Below, piece after piece: positions 1 through 63,194 of a DNA stretch of 64,000 bases. This DNA comes from Octopus vulgaris (lineage: Eukaryota). Every line of letters begins with the position of its first letter. Position 1 is the stretch's first letter. The notes below the pieces were generated by a model. That model worked only from the letters and a program-made list of their open reading frames with translations, ran no database searches and had not been told where the DNA came from. Location of the stretch: assembly GCA_951406725.2 (NCBI GenBank), contig OX597816.1, forward strand, positions 59,706,001 through 59,770,000. The letters are read 5' to 3'. Position numbers and translations under genes: made by a program.

Positions 1-3000
1 CAACCACTCACTCTTTTTGTGGGCCATAATAAAGTATATAAGCTGACACAGCTTATGCAGTTGATTACCTTGCTGATGTCTTATTCATTATTATTTTTAT
101 TTTTGTTCTTTCTGTAAATAGAAAAACTTACACATGTATCATGTTGGTTGTTCTGATATGTCTTCACTGTTTGCAACAGATCCAAGCAGAATCGCTGTAA
201 TCTCTAGAGTACATTTTGTTAACAACCTTAGAAAGAAAAGTCGGAGCTCGTTCTTTCTGTTCCCCCCACTCTCCTCCTCTCTCTGTGTACAAAAGTGTGG
301 GGTTTTGAAATTGATAGCACCCTGCTGCTTTTTACACTCACCCCTCGCCCTACTGCCCCACATTTCTGAAATTGGTATAAAAACGTGGTAAGTTGAATTT
401 GTTCATGCATGCTAAAACTGTGGTAAAATTGTTAAAATGTTGGACAAAATGCCTTGCAGTGTATGAAGCTGTGCTTTTCCACTTTTGGGGTTGATAAACT
501 GAAGTGCCAGTCAAGTATGGTGCTGGTGCCCTAAAAAAAAAAAAAAGACACCTGGTACACTCTGTGGTTGGTTTTATGATGGACCTCCAGATGTTGCAAG
601 TGGAGGAGATGCAACATGCACAAATCCAGTACCATCATCTTCAATAATACCAATATTGTTTTCAAATGTTGATTTGAAGTCCCTTTTAACTTTTTTGTTC
701 CCATATTTTTATTGCAACCTACTGTATTTGTTTCAATTATTTCGAAAATAATGAAGTATTTAGTTAAATATAACTTAAGCTAGTGTTTTGGAACATAAAT
801 TAACACAATGTTGATAGGTTTTAATTTTGATCACTTTAACCATTTTTGTTTCAATATTTCTGTTTAATACACTCTCCATTTCAATTATTTCAGTAACGAA
901 GAATTTATCAAAATAAGTTTGTCACCATTAAGCTAGTGTTTGGAACATGAATTAACTTGAAAGATTTTACTGGAAGGCTTTTATTTTATATAATTTTACA
1001 ACGGATTTGTATAACAGAACTAGGGGTGGCCCCTGGTGAGTTGATGTGAAAAGCATTATCAGTTAGCATTTTTGGTTGTTACCTCAGCACCCCTGTCAGA
1101 AATAGCTTATTTGAGGTGTATTTTCAATTTGGATAGCTGCTATTCTTATATTAAAGGGTGGTGAGTTGCCGGAATCTTTAGTACACCAAGGGGCATTTCA
1201 CATGTTTTTACATTCTGGGTTCAAATTACATCAAGCTTGATTTTGCCGTTCATCCTTTCAGGCTCACTAAAATAAGTACCAGTATAACACTGGGGTTCAT
1301 GTAATCAACTTACCCCTCCCTTAAAATTGCTGGCCTTGTGCCAAAATTTGGAACCCATTATTATAAGGCAGTAGTTTATGGCTTTCTTCCATAAAGTATC
1401 ATATTGGTATTCTTTTCATCATGCAGTTCTCAAAGCTAAATATCCCCTTTCAAATGAGTGGGGTTGTAAGGAAGAGCAAGGCAGTTTTATGTTAAGAGAT
1501 GATGGTTTAGTGTAAGAGAAGGGGCCAGAACAGGTTTCTTGCTGTAGGGAAGCTACTCACATTATAAAAGAGAGGAGGGTAAAAGTGGCCAATGTAGGGC
1601 TAGAAAGAAATAATAGCAGGGGTGGGGTAAAGGTATCTGTGTGGACCCTCAAGATATAAGGTAAGTAAATGTAGCTGATGGCAGAACAGGAAACATGACA
1701 AGGTAGTGGTTATAAGATTGTATGGGAGAGGGTGAATATAATTATTTCTTTATTGCCCACAGGGGGGACAAACAAAGGGATTAAGTTGATTACATTGGCC
1801 CCAGAGTGTAACTGGTACTTATTTAATCAACCCTGAAAGGATGAAAGGCAAAGTTGACCCTGGAGGAATCTAAACTCAGAACATAATGGCAGACGAAATA
1901 CCGCCAAGTTTTTTGCCGTTTGCTAACAATTCTGCCAGCTCACCGCCCTAAGAGGATGAATATAATGAAGAGTGATATAGGGAAGAATAGGGGACAACTG
2001 TAAAGATTGGATAGGGTTGAGGTGGGGGTGACCCATGATACATATTAGTTGGGGTATTGGGGAGAGGAGATGACTGACAGTGCAGAAAGAGGATGGTGGA
2101 GAGATGCAGAATAGGAATTGTGTGGTGTGTATGAGAACTTCCATATAAACTCAGCATGGAGGGTAATTTTATTTAATTTTTTTTTTTTTTTTTTTACTCT
2201 TTGAATACTTTTTAATTTAATTTTAAAGTAATAAAGGTTTTTCATTTTGAAAGTTAGTATTTGTTTCATTTTGTGTAAATATGAAATAACTTGTTAAAAG
2301 TTAATTTATAATTTTGGAATTGTGGGTTTTTCGGCACATCATAAAGCTCTAAAGAATAGCATCTAAATATTGGATATATTTCACATTCTCTTAAAAGTTT
2401 ATAAAATTCTTAGATTATAATTATTGTATGCCATATTTCTTTTTATTCGTATGATAGGAAAAGTATATTTCTAAAGTTACCTGTTATATGATGGGTAGCA
2501 CCCTGTTATATTTAAATTCCGCTACAGTTTTGACGTTTGCTGTTCGTGTTTCTAAGAAGTATAAAATCTAATAGCTAAGTCTGTTAATAGAATCTTTTAA
2601 ATTTAAACTTTTTTTGAGCTTAAAACAGGAAATACTACATTCTTTGAAACCATGGAAATATGTTTGGGTGATCATTCCAAATGGGAAGGCTAATTAGAAC
2701 TTTTGTTTACATACCATGATCTGTTATTTCTGTTACTTTAATGGACAAAGGCATTTAATTTGACCGTTTGTAGGAATTTTGTGATTAGTTAATTTAAATT
2801 ACTGTCAGGATTTAATTATGCCATTTAACTGACCAAAGTATCGGAGTGAGTCTTAGAATTTTTAATGTTGACTGAAAATTTCCCATAAATACAATGGAAT
2901 TTCACTTCATCGCTGGGTAAAAACAATTTATGGCATTGTGTGTTTAATGTTCAATTATAAGGTAGTAAGAAAGAGTTGAATTGGAAAGAAAGTTTAATGC

Positions 3001-3400
3001 AATTTTGTAATGGTGGTGGTGGTGGATGGTTGAATTGCAAGAGGATCAGATTAAAGGTATCAAAGAATTTGGTTACAGAGTTGAAATTCCGCCAAGCTTC
3101 ATTTCGCCTTACTTTCTTCCAGATATAAAATATCTGGTAGACAGATACTGCAAGAAGCCTACCTTATATACATACTTGTGTGTGTGTGTGTGTGTACCCT
3201 TGCTTAGATGTTACCTGATGATTGTAAATGACCCTCATTGTCGTACAAGTGAGGTTGTTTCAAGTCCTCTGTGAAAACCTGTCTGGCCATGGGGGAATAT
3301 TACTTTGCTTGCGAACAGGTGAGGGTTGGCATTAAGAAGGGCATCTAACCATAAATCTACCTTAATGTTTTGACTCATGCAAGCTTGGACATTAAATGGC

Positions 3401-3438
<38 letters not shown>

Positions 3439-9550: not shown

Positions 9551-9650
9551 TTTCCCCAAGACACCTGAAGAAGGCTGGAGGGTATATCAGCTGAAACGTG
9601 TTAACAACAAACAAGATAAGGACAAATATCTGTCGAATGTAAATACTGTA
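9551..9650 (+). mobile_element. 5'-truncated copy of the tRNA-headed hammerhead SINE
   Basis: CCCCAAGACAC-CTGAAGA-AGGCTG...CAGCT-GAAAC-GTGTTAACAACAAACAAGAT..., same 3' half as the copies at 32.1, 40.8 and 51.3 kb. Confidence 0.85.
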
Positions 9651-11726
9651 AATAAAGATGGTGTATTTCAACAGAAATAGGGTTATGGAGGAGATAAATT
9701 GGCTTTGTAAGCTAACCTTGGCTGTAGTTGCTATTTTCATTTATTTGTTTATGCTATTACACTTAGAGAAGGCATGAACATCTCAACTTGTAACCATTTA
9801 TAAAGTCCTAGAAATGGCTCTAATTGTCATCAGTAATATCTTGTTTTCAGGTGGCCCCACAATGAAGCAATAGCACTCGTTTGACAGTAAAACAAAGTAA
9901 CATTGTTATAAGTATTATATGTATGTGTAATTTATATCTTGAAGATATATTTCTTTGTAACATGAACAAGTTGCAAGTAAAAGAATCTAAGTTATCTGGG
10001 TAATTTGTATTGATGGAAATATGAAGAAATAAACAACTGTTTGTTTATGGTCAGCAAAAACATGAATCTATTTAATCATCATCATTTAACATCCGTTGTC
10101 CATGCTGGCATGGGTTGGATGGTTTGACTGGGCTGGCACACTGGAAGGGTGCACCAGTTTGATTTGGCATGGTTTTCTACAGCTGGGTGCCTTTCCTAAT
10201 GCCAACCACTCTGAGAGTGTAATGGGTGCTTTTATGTGCCACAGGCATGACACTGGGTCACATTTATGTGCCAATTTGCATGACACCGGTATGTCTCGAC
10301 TGCTATTTTGCTCAGCTTGATGGGTCTTTTTCTCAAGCACAACATAATGCCAAAGGTCTTGGTCATTGCCTCCATGAGGCCCAACGTTCAAGATATTCTT
10401 TATGTGCCAGCATGGGTGTACTTGGCTTGACAGGCCCTCTCAAGCACAGCATATCACCAAAGGTCTCGGTCACTAGTCATTGCCTCCATAAGGCCCCAAG
10501 TTCAAAGATTATGCTTCATCACCTTGTCCCATGTCTTCTTGGGTCTACCTCTACCACAGGTTCCCTCCACAGTTAGAGGAGTGACGGAGAGAGGCAATAA
10601 AAGCAGGGTTATAGTGAGAGCCAGTTATGAGATAATGGGGGAGAGAGGTACTAATGAGAGCTATAAATTTACTGGTAAGAGAGAAAGAGATAGAACAAGT
10701 GGTGGATAGTTGTAGAAATGGTCGCTGAGATGACAGTGACAGTAAAAGTGTGACTCTAGATGGAGATAGGTGGTAGGCAGCATAGACAGGTATATTTGCT
10801 GGTAAGAGGAAGTGGATGGGTATTCATATAAATGTTTGATGCTAAGATACTGTGGAAATTGGTGGTTTTGGTGTAGTGAATAGAGATGAGAGGGTATTGA
10901 ATAGGTTAGAGGGTCAGAAGATGGAGACATAACTCTTCTGTTACCATATTTTTATTGAAATACACTGCTTTCATTTCAATGATTTTGAAAATAACGAATT
11001 TAATAAACTATTAAGCTGGTATTTGGAACAGACTGTTGCCATGCCCCAGCATGGCCACAGTCTAATGACCAAAAACAAGTGAAAAAGAATGAAATCTTGA
11101 AAAGTTTTAATTCAGATGACTTTACCAGAAGTTATCAAAGAATATGGGGTGATCTCAAGCAGGATAATATAAAAAATATTGTGTTCAAACTGGACTAGAG
11201 GCTCAGATGTGTGTATATAGAGACCCCCTTCAATCATGAATGACCATGGAATTGCACCTAGAAAGTTCCCTCCCAAGGCACAAGCCCGAGCAAGGTTGTT
11301 TATGGAGGACCAGCAGTCACACATGCATACCAGCCTCCTTTCTCCATGCCACTGATGTTGTTAAGGCAAAGGCCAATACAGCTTGGCACCTGTAATGTTG
11401 CAATTAATTCCTTCAGCTGAGTGAACTGGAGCAAAGTGAAATAAAGTGTTTTGCTCAAGAACACAGCACAGAGCCCGGTCTGAGAATCAAACTCACTACC
11501 TCATGATTGTGAGCCTGATGCTCTAACCACTGAGCTATGCACCTTAATGTGTGTGTTTGTGTGTGTCTATCCCACCTTCCATCATGACCTCCATTCTGAT
11601 GTCATTTTTTATAACCCAGACATATAGGTTCTAAACACTGGGGTACATATGGCATTAACAAAAATTTAAATATCCCTATTTTTGATCTGACATAAATGTA
11701 AAGTTGAAGATCTAAATGTTTATAGT

Positions 11727-32095: not shown

Positions 32096-32357
32096 TACAG
32101 TTCTATATTTAAGAGATGAGGAATTATTTATATTTGATGGATATGGTGTAGTGGTTAAGAGTAGGCTACTAATCCCCAAAATTCATAGTTCGATTCCAGG
32201 CAGTGACCTGAATAATAACATCGAAAAATACCTTATGAATGAGAACCCAGGTTTGAAATTTCCCCAAGACACCTGATGAAGGCTGGAGGGTATATCAGCT
32301 GAAACGTGTTAACCACAAACAAGATGAGGACAAATATGTCAAATGCAAATAATGTAC
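32096..32357 (+). mobile_element. tRNA-headed hammerhead SINE with an inverted copy of its own 3' tail in front
   Basis: 32096-32144 is the reverse complement of the family 3' terminus; A box TGGTGTAGTGG, B box GTTCGATTCC; CTGATGA 32273-32279, GAAAC 32301-32305; flanked by CTTGG(G/T)AGCTTT at 32084-32095 and 32357-32368. Confidence 0.88.
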
Positions 32358-39499: not shown

Positions 39500-41030
39500 G
39501 TCTGAGACGCAGCTTCTTAATGCTGACTAGGGGTTGGCAAGGTAGTTAATATTGACTCCTGTGGGTGGGTCTTTGTGGCCATGCAAGCATTTGATAAACA
39601 CCTGGAATGTTTTTTAGCACTGAGGGTGCTGAATTGTTAAACCTGGAAGTGTCAGGTTATCTAAGGCTAAAACTCACTAGTTTCCAGCTAATACAATAAC
39701 TATTCATCCATTTTCTCCACCTACTATTCTAGAGATGGTCATTGGGGGTAGCATCCTTGGGTATCTCGCCCATGGGATCCTTTCAGAAGCAACTGGCTGG
39801 ATTCTCAACTGAGATGAAGAGTATTATCCAACCATTTTGTTCTTGATCTAATCACATGTTCATCATACTGGAACTGACCTCTCATTGTGGAGAAGTGGCA
39901 ACTCAACCTGGAGAGACTCCTTGATCTTCAAGTTATGCGCTCTATCGTTACTCCAGAGATCCTTCTGTGGAATCCCATTTTGGCTGCTTGTATTCACAAT
40001 TGTACTCTTTCAGTCTTTACCTAATATTTGTGACCAGAGGTGAGGACAAGCATGGAAACTGAATTGAAAATAGTAAGCTTGGCTTTTTTACCAACCACTT
40101 CTCTTTTGAGGATTGAATGCCAGAATTGGCACATTACTGAGCATCCAGTTTAGCCTCCTGCTTCCCATCACTTGTGTATATAACCCTGAGATACTTAAAC
40201 TTTTCCATGTCTTATTGATGTCACTAATATGCAGTGCACTCTAAGATGAGGTTTTTGAGAGGACCAGTGTCTCAGTTTTTGCAACATTAATTCTTGTTCC
40301 TGCCTTGCATCACCTGGCAATAAAATCATTCAATGCATGTTGGAGATCACCTTCTGAAGAGCTATGTTTGTTACACCATGTCGTTTGCTGATATCACTCA
40401 ACTGGTTCTTCATCCATCAATTGTGACACCACTTCTACAATGTCTGTGCATATCTGTGCAGTTCATAAAAATTCTGAAAAGGAAGGGTGACAATACACAC
40501 CCTTGCTGAAGTCCAACATTCATCTTCAAAGGTTTAGACTAAACTCCATTTGTACTCCATATGTACATTATTTACATTTGACGGATATTTGTCCTCATCT
40601 TATTTGTTGTTAACACAACGTTTCGGCTGATATACCTCCCAGCCTTTATCAGGTGTCTTTGGGAAATTTCAAACCTGGGTTCTCATTGCTAAGGTATTTT
40701 TCATCTTTATTATTATTATCATTCAGGTCATTGCTTGGAATCGAACTCGGAATCTTGGGGTTAGTAACCCGTGGCATAGTGGTTAAGAGCACGGGCTACT
40801 CACCCCAAGATTCCAAGTTCAATTCCAGGCAATGACCTGAATAATAATGATAATAATAATAATAATAATATTGAAAAATACCTTAGGAATGAGAACCCAG
40901 GTTCCCCAAGACACCTGATGAAGGCTAGAGGGTATATCAGTCGAAACGCTGTGTTAACAACAAACAAGATGAGGACAAATATCTCTCAAATGTAGAACTG
41001 TATTAAACTCCATTTAGCTAAACACAAACA
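39500..41030 (-). mobile_element. Decayed RTE-clade LINE reverse transcriptase fragment
   Basis: Minus strand around 40480-40551 reads NGV*SKPLKMNVGLQQGCVLSPFL (RT QG motif) and continues across the insertion; further FKYLR-like motif near 40190; stops and frameshifts; boundaries approximate. Confidence 0.75.
40552..41003. mobile_element. Head-to-head inverted dimer of the tRNA-headed hammerhead SINE
   Basis: Minus copy 40561-40772 abuts plus copy 40773-41003; exact 12-bp TSD TAAACTCCATTT at 40540-40551 and 41004-41015; interrupts an RTE RT fossil. Confidence 0.92.
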
Positions 41031-43464
41031 TCTGGTAAGATGATTGGGTCTGATCTGAGGGAAATGTCACTGTTCTTTGTAGCAGGTTGAGTAACCACAC
41101 ACAGGTTACTTTGTTTATAGTATTGTAGTTTAAAACTAAGACTGGGTCAGTACTTTAGAAATTTGAACTGTTCCTCTAATTTCTCTCATAGATTATAACA
41201 TTGCTCTGTCTGTCAATGTGAATATTACAACCATATTAATTACCGATGGCAAAATTAACAATGAATCAATAATACATCTTTTTATGGTCCTTGATCTCAA
41301 TTCATTTCATGTGTAGGATCTTGCTTTGTTGGGTATTGCTCTATCTTCTTAAGCCTACCTCATCTACAGACACAAACAAATGAGAAAGCTATGTTATCAC
41401 TCAACTGGTGAAACCTAGTAGCCATATTAATCTCTGTAAAGTCATACTTCACTGTCTGGACACATTAGATAATGTGGCCCTACTTGTTTTTAAATAAATG
41501 GTTCTGACTGGAACACTTTCGATCAGATGTTTGTTTGGTCTAGGTTGACTTGGAGTTAAACTACAGGTATTTTATCATAATTTTAGACAAAAATAAGAGA
41601 ACTAACTTAGTGACCAGTGGCATGTTTTTGAGCAACAGATTATTACAAGTTTATCAAATAGCATATTACATAGATTCTTGATTTATTACACATTATCTCT
41701 GCCTCTAAGAGATGTCTCATAATTACCAAAAGGCAGTTAACTTCACTTGAGAAAGGGAGATAATCTCAAGATTGAAGAATTCTCCAAAATTGACATGTCA
41801 TTAAAGAAAAGAAGACTGGTGGACAATTGTGAACATGTTTCTCTGACCTTTTGCTGTTCATTAAATTTTCATTTGAAAACAATTATTTCGCGCATTCTTT
41901 GATAATACATTTCAGTTCTACATGTGTTTTTCTCATCTCAGAGATTCTAACCGGCAAGAATGGCTGAAAACAACTAAGACAGTAATTGCCATTTTCTAAC
42001 TGCTTCAAAACAGAACTTCCTCAGAGATGGAAATCTTTTAGTCATTTCGATCATTATGTCCAACATAATGTATGAAAATTGTTGCAGTATTATCTGGTCC
42101 CTTAATGTTGTTTTCTGTCTGTAAAAATTGAAGTAGCAATGATAGCACACTGCGTGAATAAGATTTACAAGATCAAGATTTATCAGGAATAATTACAAGT
42201 TCAGCACATCAACTTGGTCTTTGTGTATTTTGTTTGTCATGCAAAGACAAGAATCCTGATATCTAGATGAAAATATTAAATTAATGTAATTGTAGATGAG
42301 TGGTTTGTGTTTAATGTTGGCCTTTACATGCATGTAATGTTGAGGCATAAATGCGTGGGTATGTTGGGAACACATCTTCTTGAGTGGTAGTTGTTTAGCT
42401 CCAGGTCAGTCTTCATCATTTGATGTGCCTCTTGTCTGCTGGCATGGGTTGGATGGCTTCATAGGATCAAGCAAGCCACAGGACTGCCTCGAGCTCCATT
42501 GCCTGCTTAGGCATGGTTTCTATGCCAACCACTTTGCAGTGTCTATTGGGGGCTTTTTCCTCATTCCACCAGCACTAGAAAGTTACTTGCAAGACAGAAA
42601 AAAGACTAGAGTGGGAGAAAGGGAAAGGTAAGCTCACCCTACTGTAGGAGGTGGGGTTGAGGCAGAGGTAGTTTTATGCTAGATGTTTGAGAGGCTAAAG
42701 TATGATAGAGGTGTTTGGCGATTGAGGTGATGCATAGCTACCCCACATTATATATAAGAGTGGGTGGTTGTAGCTGGGGGAAGATAAAGATGGTAGTAGT
42801 AGGGGACAGAGCAGACTCTCAAGGTACAAGGTAAGCATCAGAGTGAATGGTCGTGACTATCCTGTATTTTTAATAGTATCTAGGAGGGGTTGAGGGAAGT
42901 TTGGCTGTTGTTTCTTGCAAGTAAAGGTTCCCTTATTGGTTCATTCATTATATTTCAGTTGATGTTATGTCGTTCATGGCCCATGGTGGTTTCTGCAATC
43001 AATTATATCAGTTACTGTCCTTTTATAGGAAACTAATTTCCTGTTAGTCTGTAACATAATACTCTTCCCTGTATTCCTGTAACTTTAGTCAATGACAAAA
43101 GATGTTTGAGATAAAATGATTGAAGTATTTTAGATTGTGTGGGATTGAAGAAAGATGTTGGCTGGCTTCTTGCACAATTGTGAAACTTGTTTATTCCAAT
43201 TATCTGCATGAGATTAAGACGTTGGACAAGAGGTTCCTTTCGTCATCACTTCATCATTGCAATTGAATAGGACAAATAACCTGTGTGTCAGGCTGCTTGC
43301 CTGACAATGAGGTTCCACTCTCATTTCACAATTGAGTATTTAGAAGAGAGAGAAATATCTTGGAAAAAGAAAAAAAAATGCCCAACCCATTATAGTATGA
43401 TGGAGGGGATGGAAATCAGTTAAAAATTAATAATTAAATTATAATTCTTTCTTTTTTTTTTCAG

Positions 43465-43558: not shown

Positions 43559-45299
43559 GTATCCTTCAACAAGAAATATGCTTATCAATGTGGTAGTTGG
43601 GATATTTTAAGGGCTTTACATACAGTTTCAGGGGAAGTGTCTTTAACTGTAGTCATGGACCAGCCAAAGCTTTGTGAGTGAATGTGGTAGATGGAAACTG
43701 AAAGAAGCCTGTTTGTGTATGTACTCTCCAAATATTGTGAGTTACGAGCAATTGTCTTATGATAACAACTCATCTGCCAGCTTTACACCTTTTGAATATG
43801 TGTAAAAATGAAGGGTTACTGAGAGAAAGGACATCTGGTTGTAAAATTAAAACCTTTTTTTCAACTTGAAAAAAAACACAAAAAAACTGGCACTCCTTCA
43901 GTTACGATGACAAGTGTTCCAGTTGATCCGATCAGTGGAACAGCCTGCTCATGAAATTAACATGCAAGTGGCTGAGTACTCCTCAGATATGTATACCTTT
44001 AACGTTGTTCTCTGGGAGATTCAGTGTGACACAGAATGTGACAAGGCTGGCCCTTTAATTGTCAGTTGAATGGACTGCAACAACATGAAATAAAGTGTCT
44101 TGCTCAAGGGTAAGATGCTCTGCCGGAAATCAAACTCCTGACCTTATGATCTTGAGTCTAATACCTTAACCACTAAGCTAACATGCTTTTCACTTTGTCT
44201 AACTTATGCTGGAAAGGAATAACAGATATAACATTGAACAAACGGAGTTAGATCTTTGTGTATTTAGGTCCACAAGGACCTTTTGTGGAGAGCTTGGGAT
44301 AAGGTTTGAACAGAACAATTTCATTGTCTTCTATCATTCTTTAGGACTAAATCCCTATGGATATGAGTCCTTATATAAAACCCACAGTGTATTCTGCCAA
44401 AAAGGTCCTTTGTGAGCCAAATTTCACTGTAGACCAGACGTATTGTTGTGACTCCATTTATATTTATAAAAGTTAGATGTCTTCCATGTTCAAGATGATA
44501 CAGTCTCAGTTTATACTTCCTTACTTTCAAATTCTAATGTCCTATAATTTGTGTATAACAATTTACTTTATTGATAATTATCATCCTCCTCATTGTTATT
44601 GAGAGAGAGAAAGGCAGTGAGCTGGCAGAATCATTAGCACACTGGGTGAAATACTTAGCGGTATTTCATCTGACACTACGTTCTGAGTTCAAATTTTGCC
44701 AAGGTCGACTTTGTCTTTCATCCTTTCGGGGTCGACAAATTAAGTACCAGTGTAATCGACTAGTCCTCCTCCCCCAGAATTTCAGGCCTTGTACCTCTAG
44801 TGGAAAGGATTATTGAGAGATAGCAGTGCATGCCATCAAAGTGACACTGGGGTATAAATATATGAAGCCCAATATACTCATCATGACTACCCATCTGATA
44901 AGGGTACGTCAAGCATTTGCATCACAACCTCATGTGCACGACATGATGACTTCATATCAAGATAAATGGCACATTCTGCTCAAAAGGTCCCTGAATAAGG
45001 GTTGTTTGAGGATAGTGAATGAAAAACCCATGTTTCCAAGGATGAATTCTTTGAACCCTAAAGAACCCCTGTCAACACATGGCTATTGAGACTTTCCTAC
45101 TACTTCTGCCTGTGATCAGAGATGCACATATTGTCAGCCACTAAGGGACATGCTCAACTGGTTATGTTCAAACAACTGACAACCAAATCTGGTATTTAGC
45201 AGTATATTTTCTGTAGCCCATCTTTTACACCAATACAAAACCTGTACATAACCCTTCCAAGATCAGAACTCTGAGGGCCACTGCACTAGTATTATTATT

Positions 45300-46131
45300 A
45301 GGAAGAGGTTCGTTTGGAGAAAAAGAATCTTCGTTTTCAACACAGATGGCAGCACTCGTTTGTGTGTGCAATGAGAGCTAACAGTGACCTTCACTCAGCA
45401 GTGTACCAAGTGACATCACTGTGTTTACTTTTCAAGTAGTGAACTTTGTGTTTTTGTGTTCACGTGTGTCTACTGTAGTCTGTGATTTTATCATGGACAA
45501 GAACAAAGAGCCAACGTGAATTTCGTGTTAAACTACAGAGACATTGAGCATGCCTCAGCAAGTTTACAGCGACAAGGCAATGGGTCATAGGCAATGTTTT
45601 GAGTGACACGGGTGCTTCAAAAACAGAAGACCTGTCACAAGTGTCACCCCCAGAAATGTAGCATTGTGCATCAAGAATTCATCCCTCGAGCAGGCCATCA
45701 ATCTAGAATTCTACTGCGGCATTTTGAAGCATTTGAAGGAGGACATTCGACAAAAGCGACCAGATCTGTGGAGTATGAAGAATTGGTTTCTTCATAGAGC
45801 CCTTCTCACTTATGAGTTTTTCGGCAAAAACAACTTGTCTACCTGCCCTATTTCCCAGATTTAACACCTGCGGACTTCTATCTCTTCCCCAAGATGAAAA
45901 TGTAGCACTAAGGTCACCATTTTAACACAGTTGTCAAGATATAGAGAGACTCACAGAAGATCCTCAACTTGCTTCTGGAAAATTACTGCCTGGCCAGATT
46001 CCAAAAATGGCAGGAACACATGGACTGGTGTATTGCTGTGCAAGGTTGCTATTTCGAAAGAGATGATGTTAAAACATAGGCAAATGATTTATTTTTTTAA
46101 ACATAACTAGTCTGGGAACCTTTTGATACCA
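45300..46131 (+). mobile_element. Internally deleted mariner transposase fossil
   Basis: Fragments IVHQEFIP, QAINLEFYCGILKHLKEDIRQKRPDLW..KNWFLH, YFPDLTPADFYLFPKMK (YSPDLAPxD motif) and WCIAVQGCYFE; frameshifted. Confidence 0.88.
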
Positions 46132-46256
46132 TCTCAGACATTCCAATATCCAAACTATTACAGTCATTATTAGCATGGTAAAAAATAAATGTAAAGTGAT
46201 TTTCCAAGATATTTTACTATAAAATGATGTACTATTTGACCAATGTATTTTATATA

Positions 46257-46479
46257 TTGGTTAGGTGCATAATTATTGTGGCTTTTTTCAACAAATTTTA
46301 TTCAACAAAAACAGCTTTAAATGATTATTCCGAAGCATATTCACCATCTACTTCAATTACTGCTTCCCATTTGCTTGGCAGATGGTCAGGCCGTCATTTA
46401 AAAATGTTTTTGTTAAATATTGTTATTGTTGAATAAAATTTTTTGAAAAAAACGCTGCAATAATTATGCACCAGCTCAA
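46257..46479. mobile_element. Mariner-type MITE
   Basis: TIRs TTGGTTAGGTGCATAATTATTGTGGC / reverse TTGAGCTGGTGCATAATTATTGCAGC, resembling mariner TIRs; TA at both ends (46255-46256, 46480-46481). Confidence 0.85.
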
Positions 46480-46560
46480 TATAAAATGGTGATGTACTAT
46501 TTGATCAATGTATTTTATCTATAAAATATGAGATGTCGTAAGCTTTCTTTAACCCTGAAG

Positions 46561-46696
46561 ATGGTACTGCCCTAATATATACATCTGTGAAAGAGGAAAA
46601 GAACTGTGATCTTTTGTTTAAGTATTTGGTCCACAGGATATATGGATTTTCATTCTCAATGCCTGCATATGTGGTAGAAAAAGATTCTGTGTTTGT
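46561..46696 (+). CDS. DYNC1LI: Dynein LIC exon (follows U12-type acceptor)
   Basis: (Y)[44 protein letters not shown](V); preceded by TTTCTTTAAC-CCTGAAG; GTAAGT donor at 46697; 136 nt. Confidence 0.96.
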
Positions 46697-47571
46697 GTAA
46701 GTGTTTATTTGGTTTTTCTTTCCCTCCCCCTCTTAAAATGTCTTCTATAAAAACTGTTTTATATTGTTGTGATTGCTGGAAAGTCTAGATCACTTCTGAT
46801 TATGTATATGGTATTTTATGATTTAGAAGTGCTGGTGCCATGTAAAAAGTACCCAGTACACTTTTTGTAAAGAGGTTAGCATTAGAAAAAAACATCCAGC
46901 TGTAGAAACCATTCCAAAGCAAAGGAACCTGGTACAACTCCTGGCCGTGCCATTTCCTGTCAAACTATTCCACCCATGTCAGCATGGAAAACTGACATTA
47001 AATGATGAACTTGTCTTGCTTAAAAACGCCATTTTACTCCATGGGTTGGAAGGTCAGTTCTTATTTGGGACCACTACCCTCCATAGTGTGGCGAATGGCC
47101 TGTACCCTTCTCATTTGTTTTCTTTTTGACATAGTTCCTACAATAGGACACCCTTCCTGACACCGACCACTTTATATATTGAGTGCAACTGTTTTTTCAT
47201 TGCTATTTATGCTACAGTGTCACTGTTTTAAAATGGAGTTTCTTTTGGAGGAGACTTGTTGACAAAGAAAAAATAATAAACCAATTGTTTTAATTCTCAG
47301 GTTTTACTCTTGTGCCTGGGAAGGCTTCTATAGTTTACTTGTTAATATAAGTTGGCATAGGATCCTGTAACCTGTTAATTGCTGTTTAATCTTTTGACCT
47401 CCTTGAATCCGTCTCTGTTAAACAGCTTATTTGTTGTACAAAGCTAAAGTTGTTATCTGAAGGTAAAACTATTGGACCTCTGCCAGTAAATAGCAGTTTC
47501 AGTGACAGAAAGTCGGTGAGCCATTTCCCAAGATGTTATTAAGTTGTTATCTTTTAACTTAACCTCCATTA

Positions 47572-47965
47572 TTGGTTTAGGACGAATATTGCAGTCATTT
47601 AGCCTTAGGAGACATTGTCTCCAGCTGGCTATATGACATGATCTGTGTCCTTATATTTTCGAACAAGGGAATTTTGCACTCCCCACTCAGCTCAAAACAA
47701 TATCTGTGTATTGTTATTTCCTGGAAATTGTGATACACAAATATTGTTTTGAGCTGAGTCGGGGTGCTAGATTCTCTTGTTCGAAAACAATAAGAGCACA
47801 GATTGTGTCATATAGCCAGCTGGAGACAATGTCTCCCGGGGCTAGATTACAGCAACATCTGTCCTAAACCAAGACTGCCATGTTATGTTGGCAAATAATC
47901 TTTACTCTAAAGTACTGTTGTTGAATATCTCACATTGTGAGATTTAAAAATAGTAATTTTCTAAT
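47572..47965. mobile_element. Asymmetric fold-back element upstream of exon 48080
   Basis: 47573-47720 is the imperfect reverse complement of 47724-47872, with an unpaired extension to ~47964; 13-bp direct repeat TTAACCTCCATTA at 47559-47571 and 47966-47978. Confidence 0.88.
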
Positions 47966-48079
47966 TTAACCTCCATTAGGTAGAAATTTGTTGTTTTGGT
48001 CACGCTTTTCTTTTAGATTTCTCTTGAGGAATTTCAGATTTCAACCTTGAATTCTTTCTCTGTTTTTCTTTTAATCTAG

Positions 48080-48191
48080 TCCTGCTGGTTGGGATACAGA
48101 AAAGAAAATATCTATTCTAAATGAAAATCTTGCAAACATGAAAGCTGAGGACCTGAGTGAAGATATTCCCAGTAAACCAGTTGTAAGAAAG
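48080..48191 (+). CDS. DYNC1LI: Dynein LIC exon (PAGWD motif)
   Basis: TCTAG acceptor; [37 protein letters not shown]; GTAAGC donor at 48192; 112 nt. Confidence 0.96.
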
Positions 48192-48412
48192 GTAAGCTTG
48201 CCTCCCAGCTCCTTGGCTTCGGGTTTAGCCTCACTGTAAGTGGGCAAATGTCTTCTATTTCAGCTGTGGCTGACCAAAGACTTGAGTGGATTTAGCTGAT
48301 GGAAATTGAAAGAAACCCATCATTGTGTGTGTGTGTGTGTGCCACCCACTCTACAGAGTGTACAGGATGCATTTTCCTTGGTGCGCCTTGTAACTTTCAA
48401 GACAAAAGCCTC

Positions 48413-48813
48413 TTAGAAAATTATTATTTTTAAATCTCAGATATTCAGCAACAGTACTTTGGAGTAAAGATTGTTTGCTAACATAATGTGGCAGTCCTGG
48501 TTTAGGACAAATGTTGCTGTAATTTAGCCCCAGGAGACATCGTCTCCAGCTAGCTATACAACACGATCTGTTGTGTTACATTTTCGAAAATATCTGGTGC
48601 TACATATAAATGAAGGGAGATAACCCGTAAATCACAATACACAGATATTGTGTTGAGCTGAGTGGGGGTGCTAGATTCCCTTGTTCGAAAATATAAGGAC
48701 ACAGATCATATCGTATAGCCAGCTGGAGACGATGTCTCCTGTGGCTAAATTACAGCAACATTAGGCCTAAACCAGGACTGCCATGTTATGTTGGCAAACA
48801 ATCTTTACTCCAA
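48413..48813. mobile_element. Asymmetric fold-back element downstream of exon 48080 (same family)
   Basis: 48458-48590 is the imperfect reverse complement of 48684-48814; direct repeat CAAAAGCCTC at 48403-48412 and 48811-48820. Confidence 0.88.
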
Positions 48814-50115
48814 AAGCCTCATACTTGAGAGGGGAGTGGAAGAGGGGGGAAATGATTGTAAGCCAGGTGAGAGGGACAGAGATAGTTGCCTTTTTCTATA
48901 GAGGAGATTGTTGGCCACCCCAGTAGGATGAGGAAAGAGAAGGAACTGGGGGAGAGATTGTGTTGGGGCCTACCCACACTGAACAGTAGGGTGGGGTATA
49001 AGTAGTACAGAGGAGGATGTTCAATAAGAGTGTAAGGGGATGGAGTTAAATCCCACAGACATTTACTAGATTGCTTGTATTCCCTTATTCTTATCTTTTC
49101 ACAATATATTTTGATATTTGCAGTTTCCATTATACATCTATCCTCATTTGTCGTGGGTGCCTGGTTCCTCAAAAAATACAATGGTGAATGAATCCTCTCC
49201 AGTCACTTAGTAAATGGAACAAATGATAGATTCAGTGACTTCAAACCCATGGCTCACAGTAGCAAAGCTTCCAACATCACATAGTTTCTTGCTCTTGTCA
49301 ACCGTTTTCTGAAGAAAATGCAGTTGTCTGTGTTGTTTGTTAGGATCTGGTACCTTCATGTTTTCTCTGTTCACTCATCTTGTGTTGATGGCTAAAAGCA
49401 GCTGAGCACTGTGGATGGTCAGCATGGTATGCTTTTGTGATAAGTGGAATCTTCAACTGATCATTAATCCATGTTATTACAGATCAATCAGTGATAAACG
49501 GAGCTACATATATTTTCTTCCATCTCAAAGAATGGAAATATTTCAATGCCTTATATGTCTACATTTCCTTCCTGTTACCTTAGACACAGAAAACTTTGTT
49601 TTATTACTGTATTGCACTAACCCTCCTCCCCCACAAGTACATTTCAGGAATTTTAAAAATTTATCAGTTTTATAATCTTTAAGTGTAGATAATTTTTTTT
49701 TAATATTGAAGAAAGGAAAGGAAAAAAATCTAGAAAATTCAATTTTTCTGAAATATGGGAATGCAGTGATAAATGTTTTTTTTAAAGTATTTGACCCCAA
49801 GATTTGCTAAGGGAAAAGTGAAAAAGTAGCATTGATTTAAATGGGTTTCATATAAAGGAAATGGATTCCAATAACTTGAAATGGGTGAATTAAATTGCTG
49901 CTATCCGAGCGTGATCATTGCCAAGAACACGGATTGGCTCCTGTGCCAGTGACACGTGGAAAGCACCATTCGAGCATGATCGTTGCCAGTGTTGCCTTAC
50001 AGGCACATGATAAACAACATTCAATGCCAGCATGGAAAGTGGACGTTAAACAATGATTATGATAGATTATTGTCAGCAGTTTCTTTTGTAATAATTCTTT
50101 TCTGTATATTTGCAG

Positions 50116-50217: not shown

Positions 50218-51262
50218 GTCTGTATCTCCTGACAATCCAATTGACTTTTCATGTTACTGCCACCACCAGCCCCTGCAATAAACATTGGTTTCTTTTTGCT
50301 ATTTTCAAAAGATTTTTATTTTATGCCCCTAACAAATGAACATCTTTACTAATAGCATGTTAAGTATGTCAGAGGTCACCAACCTAATTCTTATTGATCT
50401 CCAGAGGTTGGAGTGGGGCTCTTCTTCGATGGGGAAATTATGTAATGTGTTCTATTTTACTGTCAAACCCAGATATTTGAGACTTAGAAATAATTACTGG
50501 AGAAGTGATTGTCATCATTCGTTAATCTTATTCTACAAAACAGAATATAAATTTACCCTTGTAAATTCTTTCTTTTTAGATGCAAATCATTTTGCTAAAT
50601 TATTTTAGGCTCTCCAACATGAATTCCTGCAACAACAATGAAGAATCAATATTTTTGCTGATCCCTTGCCAGATTTGTTTAATAAGAACTTGGAATGCAA
50701 TTTTATCTCGGTTGCTAAACAAAGAACAGAAACGGCAAAGCCAAAGATTATTTTGTACTTTTTTCTCCAGTTTCTCTTATTTTTACAAGAATGACCTGCC
50801 CTGCATACAGTGTCGTCTCATTGATGCTGTAAATATAGTCATATAATATCTGATGCTGCAAATGCAATGTCATACATCTCATGTTATAAATATAGCATCA
50901 TGTCTCCATTGATGTTATAAATAGAGTATCATACCACTTTGATTTGGAAATGCAACCGGTTGCACATAAAAAGCACATTTCGAGCGTGGTCAATGCCAGT
51001 ACCACCTGACTGGCCTTATGCCAGTGGCACGTAAAAAACACCCACTACACTCTCGGAGTGGTTGGTATTAGGAAGGGCACCCAGATCATATTGGAGCCTG
51101 GAGTAGCCTTCGGTCGAACCATCCAACCCATGCCAGCATGGAAAGTGGACGTTAAATGACAATGATGATGTGTACCATGTCTCATTGCAATATCTTTGCT
51201 AACGTGACAATAAACTGATGGAGAGAAATTACATAAGATCATATTCTATACAGATTCCTGTG

Positions 51263-51512
51263 TATGGCGTAGTGGTTAAGAACACGGGCTACTAACCCCA
51301 AGATTCCAAGTTCGATTCCAGGCAGTGACCTGAATGATGATAATAATATCGAAAAATTCCTTAGGAATGAGAACCCAGGTTCGAAATTTCCCCAAGACAC
51401 CTGATGAAGGCTGGAGGGTATATCAACTGAAACGCTGTGTTAACAACAAACAAGATGAGGACAGATATCCGTCAAATGTAAATACTGTACATAATTACTC
51501 ATAAATATAGAT
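51263..51512 (+). mobile_element. Full-length monomer of the tRNA-headed hammerhead SINE
   Basis: A box TGGCGTAGTGG 51265-51275, B box GTTCGATTCC 51310-51319, hammerhead 51396-51441; possible TSD AGATTCC at 51252-51258 and 51515-51521. Confidence 0.9.
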
Positions 51513-51690
51513 CTAGATTCCAGCTATCTTAGCCTTGGTATTTACATTTTCTAGTGATAGGGCTGACTATAATTTCTTCCAAGTCTTTCTTTACCAGATG
51601 TTATCTAATTACAACAATTATTTAAATCTTCGTAGAGGGTTTACTTCCTGTTCTCTTCTTAACTTTCGGTACGTTTTTATATTCTGCTAG

Positions 51691-54455: not shown

Positions 54456-55839
54456 ATTGCTCTGAGAAGCAGCAATACCCCTGAGTATTACACATCTGAC
54501 AGCAAGTACAAGTTTATAATCGACAGAAGCTGTGATGTCATCATTTATAACAACACTGCATGAATTTCCTAACCTTGTTATTTAGATATCCCTGTCAGAT
54601 ATGTCATTGTGGTCCCTCCCGCCCATCCCCTACTGTATCCGCACTTTGTATCTCTAATCTCTGCCTCTTCTCTCCCCTTCACCTCATCCACCTACTTCTC
54701 ATCTATCTACAGCTTTATTATACTTTTGTTCTCCAGCTCACCTTACCAACTCCTCCTCCTCTATATTTCTGTACACTTCCCCCCTCCACCACCTTCACCT
54801 GTGCCCACCACTCACTGGATTTTCCTTTATCCTTATCTCTACTGTGTCACTTGCCTTTCACACATTTGCAAACCTACCCAACCAGCCACCCTTCATTCTT
54901 TGTCCCCATTCTTTCTTTATACCCTTTTAGGGTGTTCCCTGACACCTCATCCCCACTACCCTTTCTCCTTTTCCTGTGGAACAAATTTTCAGTATTTAAA
55001 AGAATGTTATTTCATGTTGTATATTCTTACTGCTGAATTCTCCTGTCCACCCCTGCCAACCTGTCTCCCCCACTGCACCTCTTGTGCATTCATAGCTTAC
55101 ATTCTGTATGGAAATCCTACTACCACCTTTTCTGCATATCAACTATAACCATTTCCGTGACAGTCAAAGAATCTTTTCTTTACTACCTACTCCTCCTACT
55201 ACTACTACTTTAGTCTTTGCTAAGTTTACTGTAAGGCCTCTTGATTCTAGGCCTTGCTTCCATAATTCTAATTCCGTCAGCTGTAAGAATTACATCCAGC
55301 ATAAAGAGAGTTCTTATTGACAGCCAATCTTGACATCCTACAAAATTCTAACAAACGGGGAAGGTGCTGAAAGCTGATTTCTGGTGGATGCCTTTGCATC
55401 TCACAAGCCATTCACTCACCATTATATGTCTCTCAAACCATTCATCTACTCTTAGTTTCCTAGTAACCGCAAAGTTAAGTGTGAAAATTTATGAAACGCC
55501 TTTGCCAAATTGATGAACGCAAGGTAGGGGTGCACACTCTCACCAAACTAAAAGCTCCTGCAGTTGTCTTTTAGAAGACATCAGTAGCCCTTCACTCTGC
55601 CACAGAACCAAGATGTATCTCATCTATGCTAATTCTGTTCCTAATTGTATTTATTACTCTTTTTGCGGCTTTCATGACCTGTGTGTGTCTGTATATGTGT
55701 ATATGTAGGCAGGCATGTATGTATTTGTTGGTAATTTTATCTTACTAAATATGAAAAGCGTAAAGGAGCGGGGTTGGGTACACACCAACAAACCATTTCT
55801 CCTCACTCCCTTCATCCTTCTCCACTGACTTTTGTCTAA

Positions 55840-56060
55840 TCCTCATTGCCTCTTTCTCTCCTTCCCCTATTCCCTCATTGCCTCTTTCTCACCTTCACCT
55901 CTTCCCTCATTGCCTCTGTCTCTCCTTCCCTGCTTCCCTCATTGCCTCTGTCTCTCCTTCCCTCATTGCCTCTGTCTCTCCTTCCCTCATTGCCTCTGTC
56001 TCTCCTTCCCTGCTTCCCTCATTGCCTCTTTCTCTCCTTCACCTCTTCCCTTATTGGTCT
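55840..56060 (+). repeat. Pyrimidine-rich minisatellite (~24-33 nt unit)
   Basis: TTCCCTCATTGCCTCT(G/T)TCTCTCC repeated about 6-7 times with insertions. Confidence 0.92.
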
Positions 56061-56328
56061 CTCCTCTGATTTCTTATTCTTCCCACTAACAGTGATGTTT
56101 CCTCAATGATTGCCATGTGAACTTCATAAATTGCTATTTACCAACGTAGGCCAGCTTTAACTTTCTCAGTTTCTACTGTTTAATAATAACAACCATGTGT
56201 AGTTTAATGAGGGACCCTCATAAATTAGATGTAACTTTCCAGTTATTATAAAGCCGATTGTAGATAAAAAGTGTCTTATTTGTTAATGTTTTGTTGTGTA
56301 CTATAATGGATTGTGTCTTAATTTCCAG

Positions 56329-62131: not shown

Positions 62132-62456
62132 TACAGTTCTATATTTAAGAGATGAGGAATTATGTACATTTGATGGATATTTGTCTTCATCTTGTTTGTT
62201 AACACGTTTCAGCTGATATACCTGTCATATCTCTCAACTTGTCTTTCTTCCTTATTGCATACCTTGTTGTCAGCTGGGCATGCTATATCTATGATCCAGC
62301 ATAGTTTGTTCTCTTTCTCAATTAAGACTATGTCTGGCTTCCTATTCTCTATCTCATGGTTGGACTGAATCATGAAATCCTATAGGATCTTTGCATTTTT
62401 ATTTTCGACAATGCCTTCGGGTTTATGGTCTGCACTCTTAACCACTATGCCATATG
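62132..62456 (-). mobile_element. Chimeric hammerhead-SINE copy with internal R4/Dong LINE fragment
   Basis: Minus strand: SINE head ATGGCATAGTGGTTAAGAGTGC (62431-62456), then HKPEGIVENKNAKIL*DFMIQSNHEIENRKPDIVLIEKENKLCWIIDIACPADNKV (62224-62430, REL endonuclease PD..D motif), then SINE 3' half from the hammerhead loop II to the terminus (62132-62223). Confidence 0.8.
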
Positions 62457-63194
62457 CCATATGCTCTGAATAATGTGGTTGGGAGACGAGTTCCTTAACC
62501 CTACATCCATCCCTGTGCCCAAGCAATCCTAAACACATTCCCATCAACATTAAGTAGGGGTTTCTAAGTAAAAACAATATTTGTTGGTCTGGGTTCACCT
62601 GCCTGAACACACCCCTTCTTCTAGAATGACTTCCTGTTTAAAGGTGATCTCAATTTAAACCTTCCATTAAAATTTCATGTTAATTAGTTCTTTGCACCAT
62701 CTTAATGATGACAATAGCGATAATAATTTGGTGTGCTAATTCACTAAATCCCTTATTTACAAAATTAATTGAAAGAGAAATGGACTAAGGTAACCTGTTA
62801 AACCAGCTCAACACTAATGATAACAAAACTTAGTTTTAACTAATATCTTTTCTCGTCTTGGTACAAGGTCTGGACCTCTACCATCATCATCTGTTTCTTT
62901 ACTACCCACAAGGGACTAAACATAGAGGGGACAAACAAGGATAGACAAAGGTATTAAGTCGATTACATCGACTCCAATGCGCAACTGGTACTTAATTTAT
63001 CGACCCCGAAAGGATGAAAGGCAAAGTCGACCTCGGCGGAATTTGAACTCAGAATGTAGCGACAGACGAAATACAGCTACGCATTTCGCCTGGCGTGCTA
63101 ACGGTTCTGCCAGCTCGCCGCCTTACCACCATCATCATCATCATCATTGCTTGCTGTCCATGTTCCATACTGTGATGGGCTGGACAGTTTATAA

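Follow-up and report, generated by a model that had tools for sequence, protein, structure and literature searches.

Penelope-like elements (PLEs) are among the closest described systems to the octopus repeat analysed here. As far as the available text of the reports goes, PLEs with inverted 5' copies and a tail of 30-40 bp have been described (PMC8557442), and Adineta Pen2 and Pen2a carry inverted terminal repeats (pLTRs), target site duplications (TSDs) of 8-10 bp and signs of self-priming, with fold-back at pLTR 5' palindromes of 18 and 38 bp (PMC3846280). Reverse transcription of anole PAc, in which a hammerhead lies at the ORF start, initiates internally at two sites in vitro, and no reads end at the hammerhead cut site (PMC11167929). 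Minimal hammerheads also occur as opposed pairs 100-700 bp apart (PMC4209133). According to these partial sources, the octopus element shares with the Penelope/Poseidon PLEs anole PAc, Adineta Pen2/Pen2a and D. virilis Penelope a single ORF of ~830 aa with an RT and, at its C-terminus, GIY-YIG, a pLTR lying over the ORF start, a hammerhead at that place, an optional tail of 30-40 nt that stems from two RT start sites, an inverted 5' pLTR, a palindrome at the junction, TSDs of 8-10 bp and a promoter or start within the pLTR. The inverted pairs, TSDs of 8-15 bp, 40-nt tail and ribozyme reported below are already published PLE traits. The pLTR promoters described for these PLEs are TATA/Inr-like or LINE-like, whereas the octopus pLTR has a tRNA-derived head with A and B boxes followed by (TAA)n.

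The TRIMp3 elements Cassandra (5S), Helenus (tRNA) and Ajax (5S) likewise have small-RNA-derived Pol III boxes in a terminal repeat, for which the available text of PMC10886601 proposes an origin by SINE insertion; they differ in being non-coding LTR elements with PBS/PPT and TSDs of 4-5 bp, whereas the octopus element is a coding PLE. In the available text of PMC6765202, PMC7229834 and bioRxiv 10.64898/2026.07.22.740005, the SINE-like repeats Sm-alpha of Schistosoma have a Pol III-type promoter and then a hammerhead, an order shared by the octopus pLTR with its putative Pol III head, and animal non-LTR retrozymes are described as hammerhead repeats of PLE-pLTR origin. Both, by these accounts, are head-to-tail tandem, non-coding repeats cut to unit length by the ribozyme. 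In contrast, the octopus pLTR forms head-to-head pairs, has an ORF attached and ends away from the cleavage site, and unlike in retrozymes we found mostly inverted pairs, a few short tandems (L177, L196) and no ends at GUU.

The fold-back insertion at 40540-41015

The insertion lies in the window (the whole 64,000-nt stretch of Octopus vulgaris DNA analysed) within a decayed LINE RT fossil on the minus strand (approximate limits 39830-41100), which we take to be RTE-like. It is bounded by the 12-mer TAAACTCCATTT, read from the sequence at 40540-40551 (left TSD copy) and 41004-41015 (right copy, both on the plus strand) and absent from the rest of the window on both strands, and the left copy is followed by 8 nt of filler (40552-40559, plus), which reads mostly as another, incomplete copy of the target. 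The flanks rejoin as a single frame (...CV*LNGV*SKPLKMNVGLQQGCVLSP...) with stops present, and a 42-aa piece of the fossil matches RVT_1 at a sub-threshold E of 3e-4. Between the duplications an inverted pLTR arm (40560-40772, minus) and a direct arm (40772-41003, plus) meet head to head with 82% identity.

The direct arm comprises the tRNA-derived head, with an A box at 40772-40782 and a B box at 40817-40826, a (TAA)n spacer whose length varies from copy to copy (40840-40869), a decayed stretch of the PLE ORF that covers its first ~55 codons (40889-41003, ATG at 40889, by homology to the N-terminus of the PLE protein P0005) and a partly deleted tail; the coding part contains a minimal type I hammerhead motif with a damaged helix II and the cleavage triplet GCT (40910-40955, plus). 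The inverted arm ends at the upstream tail site and has a B box at 40737-40746 and a minimal type I hammerhead motif at 40612-40657 (both minus), the latter with G8>A in the core and an MFE fold that has helices I and II (z -1.65). It lacks an A box because it starts ~26 nt into the head. We infer that the junction is that of a fold-back pair whose centre was deleted between short repeats. The first-pass annotation had described two head-to-head copies in one exact 12-bp TSD, splitting an RT fossil whose frame rejoins, together with A box, B boxes, (TAA)n, two hammerhead-like stretches, the G8>A change of the minus arm and the GCT triplet at 40948, all of which stood on re-reading; of the tRNA-like head that it assigned to the family, the plus arm has both boxes and the minus arm the B box alone.

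Its list of further copies in the window was right in part. The 9551 copy is a headless 3' fragment (9551-9655, plus), and that at 32096 is an inverted tail (32096-32144) beside a direct pLTR starting at 32149 and ending at 32357 (32096-32357, plus). A near-complete solo pLTR lies at 51257-51514 (plus). In the copy at 62132 (62132-62457, minus), ~200 nt of foreign, LINE-like sequence (62223-62434, minus) separate the start of the head from the 3' part of the pLTR. This foreign piece gave no match in tblastn with the LINE ORF of locus L121; its translation resembles what we take to be a restriction-like LINE endonuclease region, and a template switch or capture is possible. The window also contains a MITE-like cluster with long hairpins, made up of nested inverted repeats that are 110-146 bp in length (47573-48814), a tandem array with a period of 8 nt (55810-56088) and other abundant repeat families in two orientations (e.g. 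at 10065, 11885, 15842, 23587, 28821 and 62889).

The proposal that the pair arose in a single insertion event was borne out across the family. In 23/30 loci the copy has an inverted partner on its 5' side, and this fold-back layout, the rule in the family, is also published for PLEs. TSDs of at least 10 bp were found in 24/90 loci, against 1.2% of 600 mismatched controls, and TSD lengths range over 8-15 bp. In 47 pairs, derived variants shared between arms amounted to 0.75 per 100 nt within a pair and 0.41 between loci (0.39 and 0.14 for non-CpG variants), a 1.8-fold excess (2.7-fold for non-CpG) reached in none of 2000 permutations; gene conversion between arms could be an added source of such variants. 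At -5..+4 the element is a small palindrome, GCCC-NN-GGGC, with an asymmetric two-base centre. In 21 short fold-backs with an intact head this centre reads GT in 13, AT in four, AC in one and otherwise in three, and the letters past it mostly match the head and not the spacer, which places the switch at about -5. One monomer (L016, 1480-1500) bears second-arm letters at its 5' junction and is possibly a second-generation copy of a solo fold-back pair.

The terminal repeat of a coding Penelope/Poseidon-type element

Family positions are numbered from tRNA position 1 of the head. A first-look search gave 4909 family candidates in the genome (2.8 Gb, 227 contigs), and the first hint of a coding partner came from one of the first 30 loci, in which the last 49 GIY-YIG codons lie just upstream of the head. 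A query made only of the GIY-YIG end, the spacer and the first four letters of the head then gave 2311 candidates, and the head directly followed the GIY-YIG end and spacer in 30/30 fetched loci, a set that includes the query and one duplicate pair; extension of eight of these loci yielded a near-complete element at L121. When DNA of the ORF N-terminus was used for the search, the tail was seen to continue into the ORF in 27/30 loci, and the order endonuclease (EN) end, pLTR, ORF start was read through in three (L137, L142, L152). The unit consists of the ~2.3-kb rest of the ORF (RT, GIY-YIG), a ~45-nt spacer, the tRNA head, (TAA)n, the ATG, the hammerhead and the tail, and the tail leads into the ORF of the next unit.

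The majority-of-copies ORF opens with an ATG just after (TAA)n and spans 825 codons, interrupted by one internal stop. Over 830 aa it shares 57% identity with P0005, a PLE protein of 847 aa; its closest protein relatives (P0002-P0010) are 50-63% identical. Its first 58 residues, which span the hammerhead, align to the N-terminus of P0005 (24/49 identical, pairwise E 3e-11). The RT domain matches RVT_1 of Pfam (E 6e-8); Pfam gave no GIY-YIG match, so that the endonuclease domain is assigned from the VYSIPCSCGRLYKGET motif in the ORF. In the available text of PMC8557442, EN+ PLEs are defined by a CCHH motif with two cysteines between GIY and YIG, and the Penelope/Poseidon type by the lack of a Zn-finger between RT and EN. 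The octopus ORF has two cysteines between GIY and YIG (CSC) and downstream histidines, which make up the CCHH motif, and contains no CxxC linker, which fits the Penelope/Poseidon type. The other EN+ PLE features, a partial-tandem pLTR overlapping the ORF start, an inverted 5' copy, a tail of 30-40 nt and a variable TSD, were likewise found. A metagenome scan with P0005 and a viral scan gave no matches. A second PLE family in this genome (L123, oriented 2297-3421, minus) has a cysteine-rich linker before GIY-YIG, which makes it Neptune-like by the definition in the available text of PMC8557442, and contains six TTTT in 1125 nt.

The putative SINE is thus almost certainly the pLTR of a coding PLE. 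The link to Penelope suggested by the first-pass annotation was correct, and the autonomous Penelope with RT and GIY-YIG that it proposed to search for, sharing the hammerhead and 3' tail, was found in the 825-codon ORF. With SINE2 elements the repeat has in common a tRNA-related head with A and B boxes; it is not a separate non-autonomous lineage sharing only its 3' end with a partner, and it has no 3' poly(A) or simple-repeat tail. The lack of such a tail had been recorded earlier, and copies indeed stop at the PLE tail sites.

The family is large. A copy was present in 20 of 120 evenly spaced 10-kb stretches (1.2 Mb), or about one site per 60 kb, and extrapolation from 20-21 sites in 1.2 Mb gives roughly 45,000-50,000 solo pLTR sites. 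The pLTR (TAA)n at L097 (oriented 1870-2050) contains a LINE 3' end; this LINE is a relative of the ORF in L121 (tblastn E 4e-10), and its placement fits a TAA-targeting Dong/R4-like element.

The tRNA-derived head, the hammerhead and the ends of copies

The earlier view of the head as tRNA-derived was upheld. Its A and B boxes are exact in the family majority, and comparison with ten tRNA genes of eight kinds from this genome gave z values of 2.7-7.4, the best match being tRNA-Arg(TCG) (49/75 identity, z 7.4); the head of another SINE-like family here matches equally well (49/80). Pairing of the acceptor stem is gone, as judged by eye, and ARAGORN found no tRNA at the window heads and no tRNA in 33 of 80 foreign loci. 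A pattern of A plus B box 3' of the ORF occurs in 7/29 own loci against 0/37 other PLE loci, although the pattern detects only 24% of the family's own decayed copies, which makes the 0/37 weak per locus. Two further tRNA-headed families, with 55 and six matches, were seen in the fetched loci, and at L224 seven tRNA-Cys-like genes are clustered within 3 kb.

The 5' ends of copies concentrate at the head. In 58 loci chosen by their 3' half only, a script placed the ends of 14 of 18 head-reaching copies at -8..+12, and after hand correction of eight loci (six with long or interrupted TAA runs, two with an inverted partner that mimics the spacer) 21/24 ended at the head, the remaining three at -25, about -32 and -66. 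In the random 1.2-Mb sample 5/7 copies stop at -13..+4 and 2/7 continue into the ORF, and one further match is ORF only. An RNase P cut at tRNA +1 was considered as the source of the 5' ends and rejected because the acceptor stem is unpaired (by eye).

In the literature searched, including the available portions of PMC6962438, PMC4758252, PMC4824008, PMC7761336, PMC7229834 and PMC6765202, we found no pLTR described as starting with a tRNA-derived head. The word tRNA does not appear in the accessible text of the 2026 retrozyme preprint, PMC4209133 or PMC3846280, nor are hammerheads mentioned in that of the 2026 octopus repeat annotation (PMC13282606). Partially available sources place OR1 and OR2 among the CORE-SINEs, and the pLTR family may already be named as OK, OR1 or OR2 or be present in Repbase or Dfam. 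Reportedly, the octopus tRNA-SINEs OK, OR1 and OR2 were described by Ohshima and Okada in 1994.

On its sense strand the majority body is free of TTTT over 2361 nt, where 4.3-4.7 would be expected (P 0.012 and 0.005), although a dinucleotide null expects only 2.2; the pLTR majority has none either. Single copies contain 21 TTTT in 46.8 kb, compared with 2.87 per kb for 25 further PLE lineages whose T content is similar, and 49 other PLE lineages (from 52 clusters, three of less than 1 kb being dropped) contain 374 against 252 expected, two of them having none. Three of ten other retroelement groups of the genome show an observed-to-expected ratio of 0.16-0.42, on 1-3 kb each; a LINE group at L287 (7509-8429) has one TTTT against 6.1 expected in four pieces. 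The TTTT gap is suggestive of Pol III transcription but not decisive. In three RNA-seq runs from one study both strands were covered about equally, read begins and ends showed no peak at the pLTR head or the GUU site, and depth at the endonuclease end was about one third of that of the pLTR 3' half, a pattern that fits passive intronic copies and is uninformative on the promoter.

The majority hammerhead has a CUGANGA core, an unpaired base before helix II, a short helix I and a palindromic helix III, and as a minimal PLE-type hammerhead, which the first-pass annotation had called it, it agrees with the motif in the available text of PMC4209133. Its core is intact in 66/162 arms and the whole motif in 25/162, and a similar core lies 3' of the ORF in 26/37 other PLE loci. 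Rfam gave no hammerhead or tRNA model match on the window and three loci with good copies, and the folding of single copies (z -1.65 to +0.9) was no better than that of shuffles and gave no energy support. The GUU site, earlier seen in only one copy, proved to be the family majority, with T at its two positions in 79% and 92% of aligned copies. The cleavage triplet is GCT in 19/131 arms (family position 189; window 40949 and 51435), more than expected from decay at a non-CpG site, and this variant perhaps marks a source lineage with a dead ribozyme.

The 3' ends of 208 arms, those not fixed by the query, fall into two groups ~40 nt apart, 85 at 240-259 and 95 at 280-289, the latter bin also taking longer copies. 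None of the 208 ends at 180-199, within 20 nt around the GUU site, and the ends sit 50-100 nt further on; the suggestion that the ribozyme makes the RNA ends was not supported. Hammerhead-made 5' ends were also considered and rejected: two 10-nt bins past the cleavage site hold 16 and 11 arm starts, against 1-9 elsewhere, and these were not counted as support because the loci were a pre-selected set and many of the starts fall within AAC repeats or a palindrome of 6 nt. By its motif the hammerhead is an ordinary PLE ribozyme, with no apparent role in setting the ends of copies. Copies at six loci (L132, L136, L139, L149, L156, L018) continue beyond the tail for ~240 nt of the ORF, stop at a common A-rich spot and are then joined to another pLTR piece; the spot is possibly a third RT start site or an RNA end.

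A putative cycle and its alternatives

RNA polymerase III is the enzyme that produces tRNAs, and since the pLTR begins with tRNA-derived promoter boxes, the element is likely to be started by it. The whole reading, a head-to-head pLTR pair of an abundant Penelope/Poseidon-type PLE with the tRNA-derived head as its likely Pol III start, is in our judgement probable. Its parts differ in strength, for on sequence grounds Pol III use of the head is favoured on balance, and Pol III transcription of the whole ORF is put forward only tentatively.

Transcription would begin ~5 nt upstream of tRNA position 1, from an upstream pLTR or a solo copy. The PLE protein would nick AT-rich DNA, and reverse transcription would initiate inside the RNA at two sites ~40 nt apart; as these lie only ~250 and ~290 nt from the start, the commonest cDNA would be SINE-sized. 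The cDNA end made at the RNA 5' end would be the GCCC-NN-GGGC palindrome, which could fold back and self-prime, copying a second and often incomplete arm, and the arm pair would be joined into a single staggered cut, leaving one TSD of 8-15 bp. Reverse transcription from a downstream pLTR would give longer copies. This cDNA fold-back differs from the scheme in the available text of PMC3846280, in which head-to-head pairs form by self-priming on an antisense template. Less surely, Pol III may also read through the entire ORF, as the missing TTTT terminators suggest. It is doubtful, though worth stating, that all this amounts to an autonomous coding element with a captured tRNA promoter in its terminal repeat, transcribed end to end by Pol III with a 2.6-kb sense strand free of TTTT, its uncapped RNA translated and its SINE-sized, promoter-bearing copies arising by internal priming.

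Against a Pol III reading, the 5' peak is not absolute, given the two of seven random copies that continue into the ORF, and Kojima argues in the available text of PMC10886601 that autonomous elements need Pol II. The head may instead be a passenger, a SINE or tRNA copy once inserted in a pLTR that is transcribed by Pol II or read-through, with copies stopping at the hairpin. Published pLTRs begin at palindromes without a tRNA head (PMC3846280, in part), so that the 5' peak may mark the hairpin and not a Pol III start, and the D. virilis Penelope promoter is internal and LINE-like (PMC2377424, in part); the spacer above the head is itself a decayed inverted copy of the head, and some control elements are also depleted in TTTT. 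However, the pLTR boundary lies within ~6 nt of tRNA position 1, the majority sequence keeps exact A and B boxes while the cloverleaf is gone, copies without a full inverted arm (L167, L177, L192, L212) also start at -5..-7, and there is no TTTT across the unit. A passenger head is unlikely, but deserves to be kept in mind.

The view of the first-pass annotation, taken here as a tRNA-SINE lineage of its own that borrows the PLE enzymes in trans and spreads from separate master copies, has become improbable. Short copies do far exceed ORF-linked ones (coverage in the 1.2-Mb sample is 21 at the tail against two at -200), the monomer at L016 looks as if it came from a solo pair, and non-autonomous PLE derivatives are described in the available text of bioRxiv 10.64898/2026.07.22.740005 and PMC8557442. 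Yet the head belongs to the coding element, the whole unit being that PLE's own pLTR, and the 3' half is PLE coding sequence. Nor do the short copies form a subfamily of their own: between 21 ORF-linked and 125 other arms there is no diagnostic base (best p 0.014 of 258 positions), and both groups carry identical polymorphisms. Some head-starting copies extend ~240 nt into the ORF, and so were copied from a longer PLE RNA. Solo copies could well serve as templates again, but within the PLE family. A fold-back DNA transposon (MITE) with terminal inverted repeats of ~250 bp, which the many long palindromes within one TSD might recall, was rejected and can virtually be dismissed, as the ends are variable and bimodal, the TSDs span 8-15 bp, the arms are often unequal and the RT ORF is continuous with the unit.

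With the pLTR of a coding PLE as the favoured identity, tens of thousands of octopus repeats are PLE ends, though pipelines would label them tRNA-SINEs. If the head is a working promoter, the element would be a coding retrotransposon driven by Pol III, a case that current thinking judges unlikely, and it would lead directly from a PLE to a SINE-like family that needs no LINE partner. The start of the transcript, being sharp and predictable, would then make questions of the PLE cycle, namely the origin of the inverted copy, the role of the hammerhead and the translation of the RNA, testable on one abundant family.
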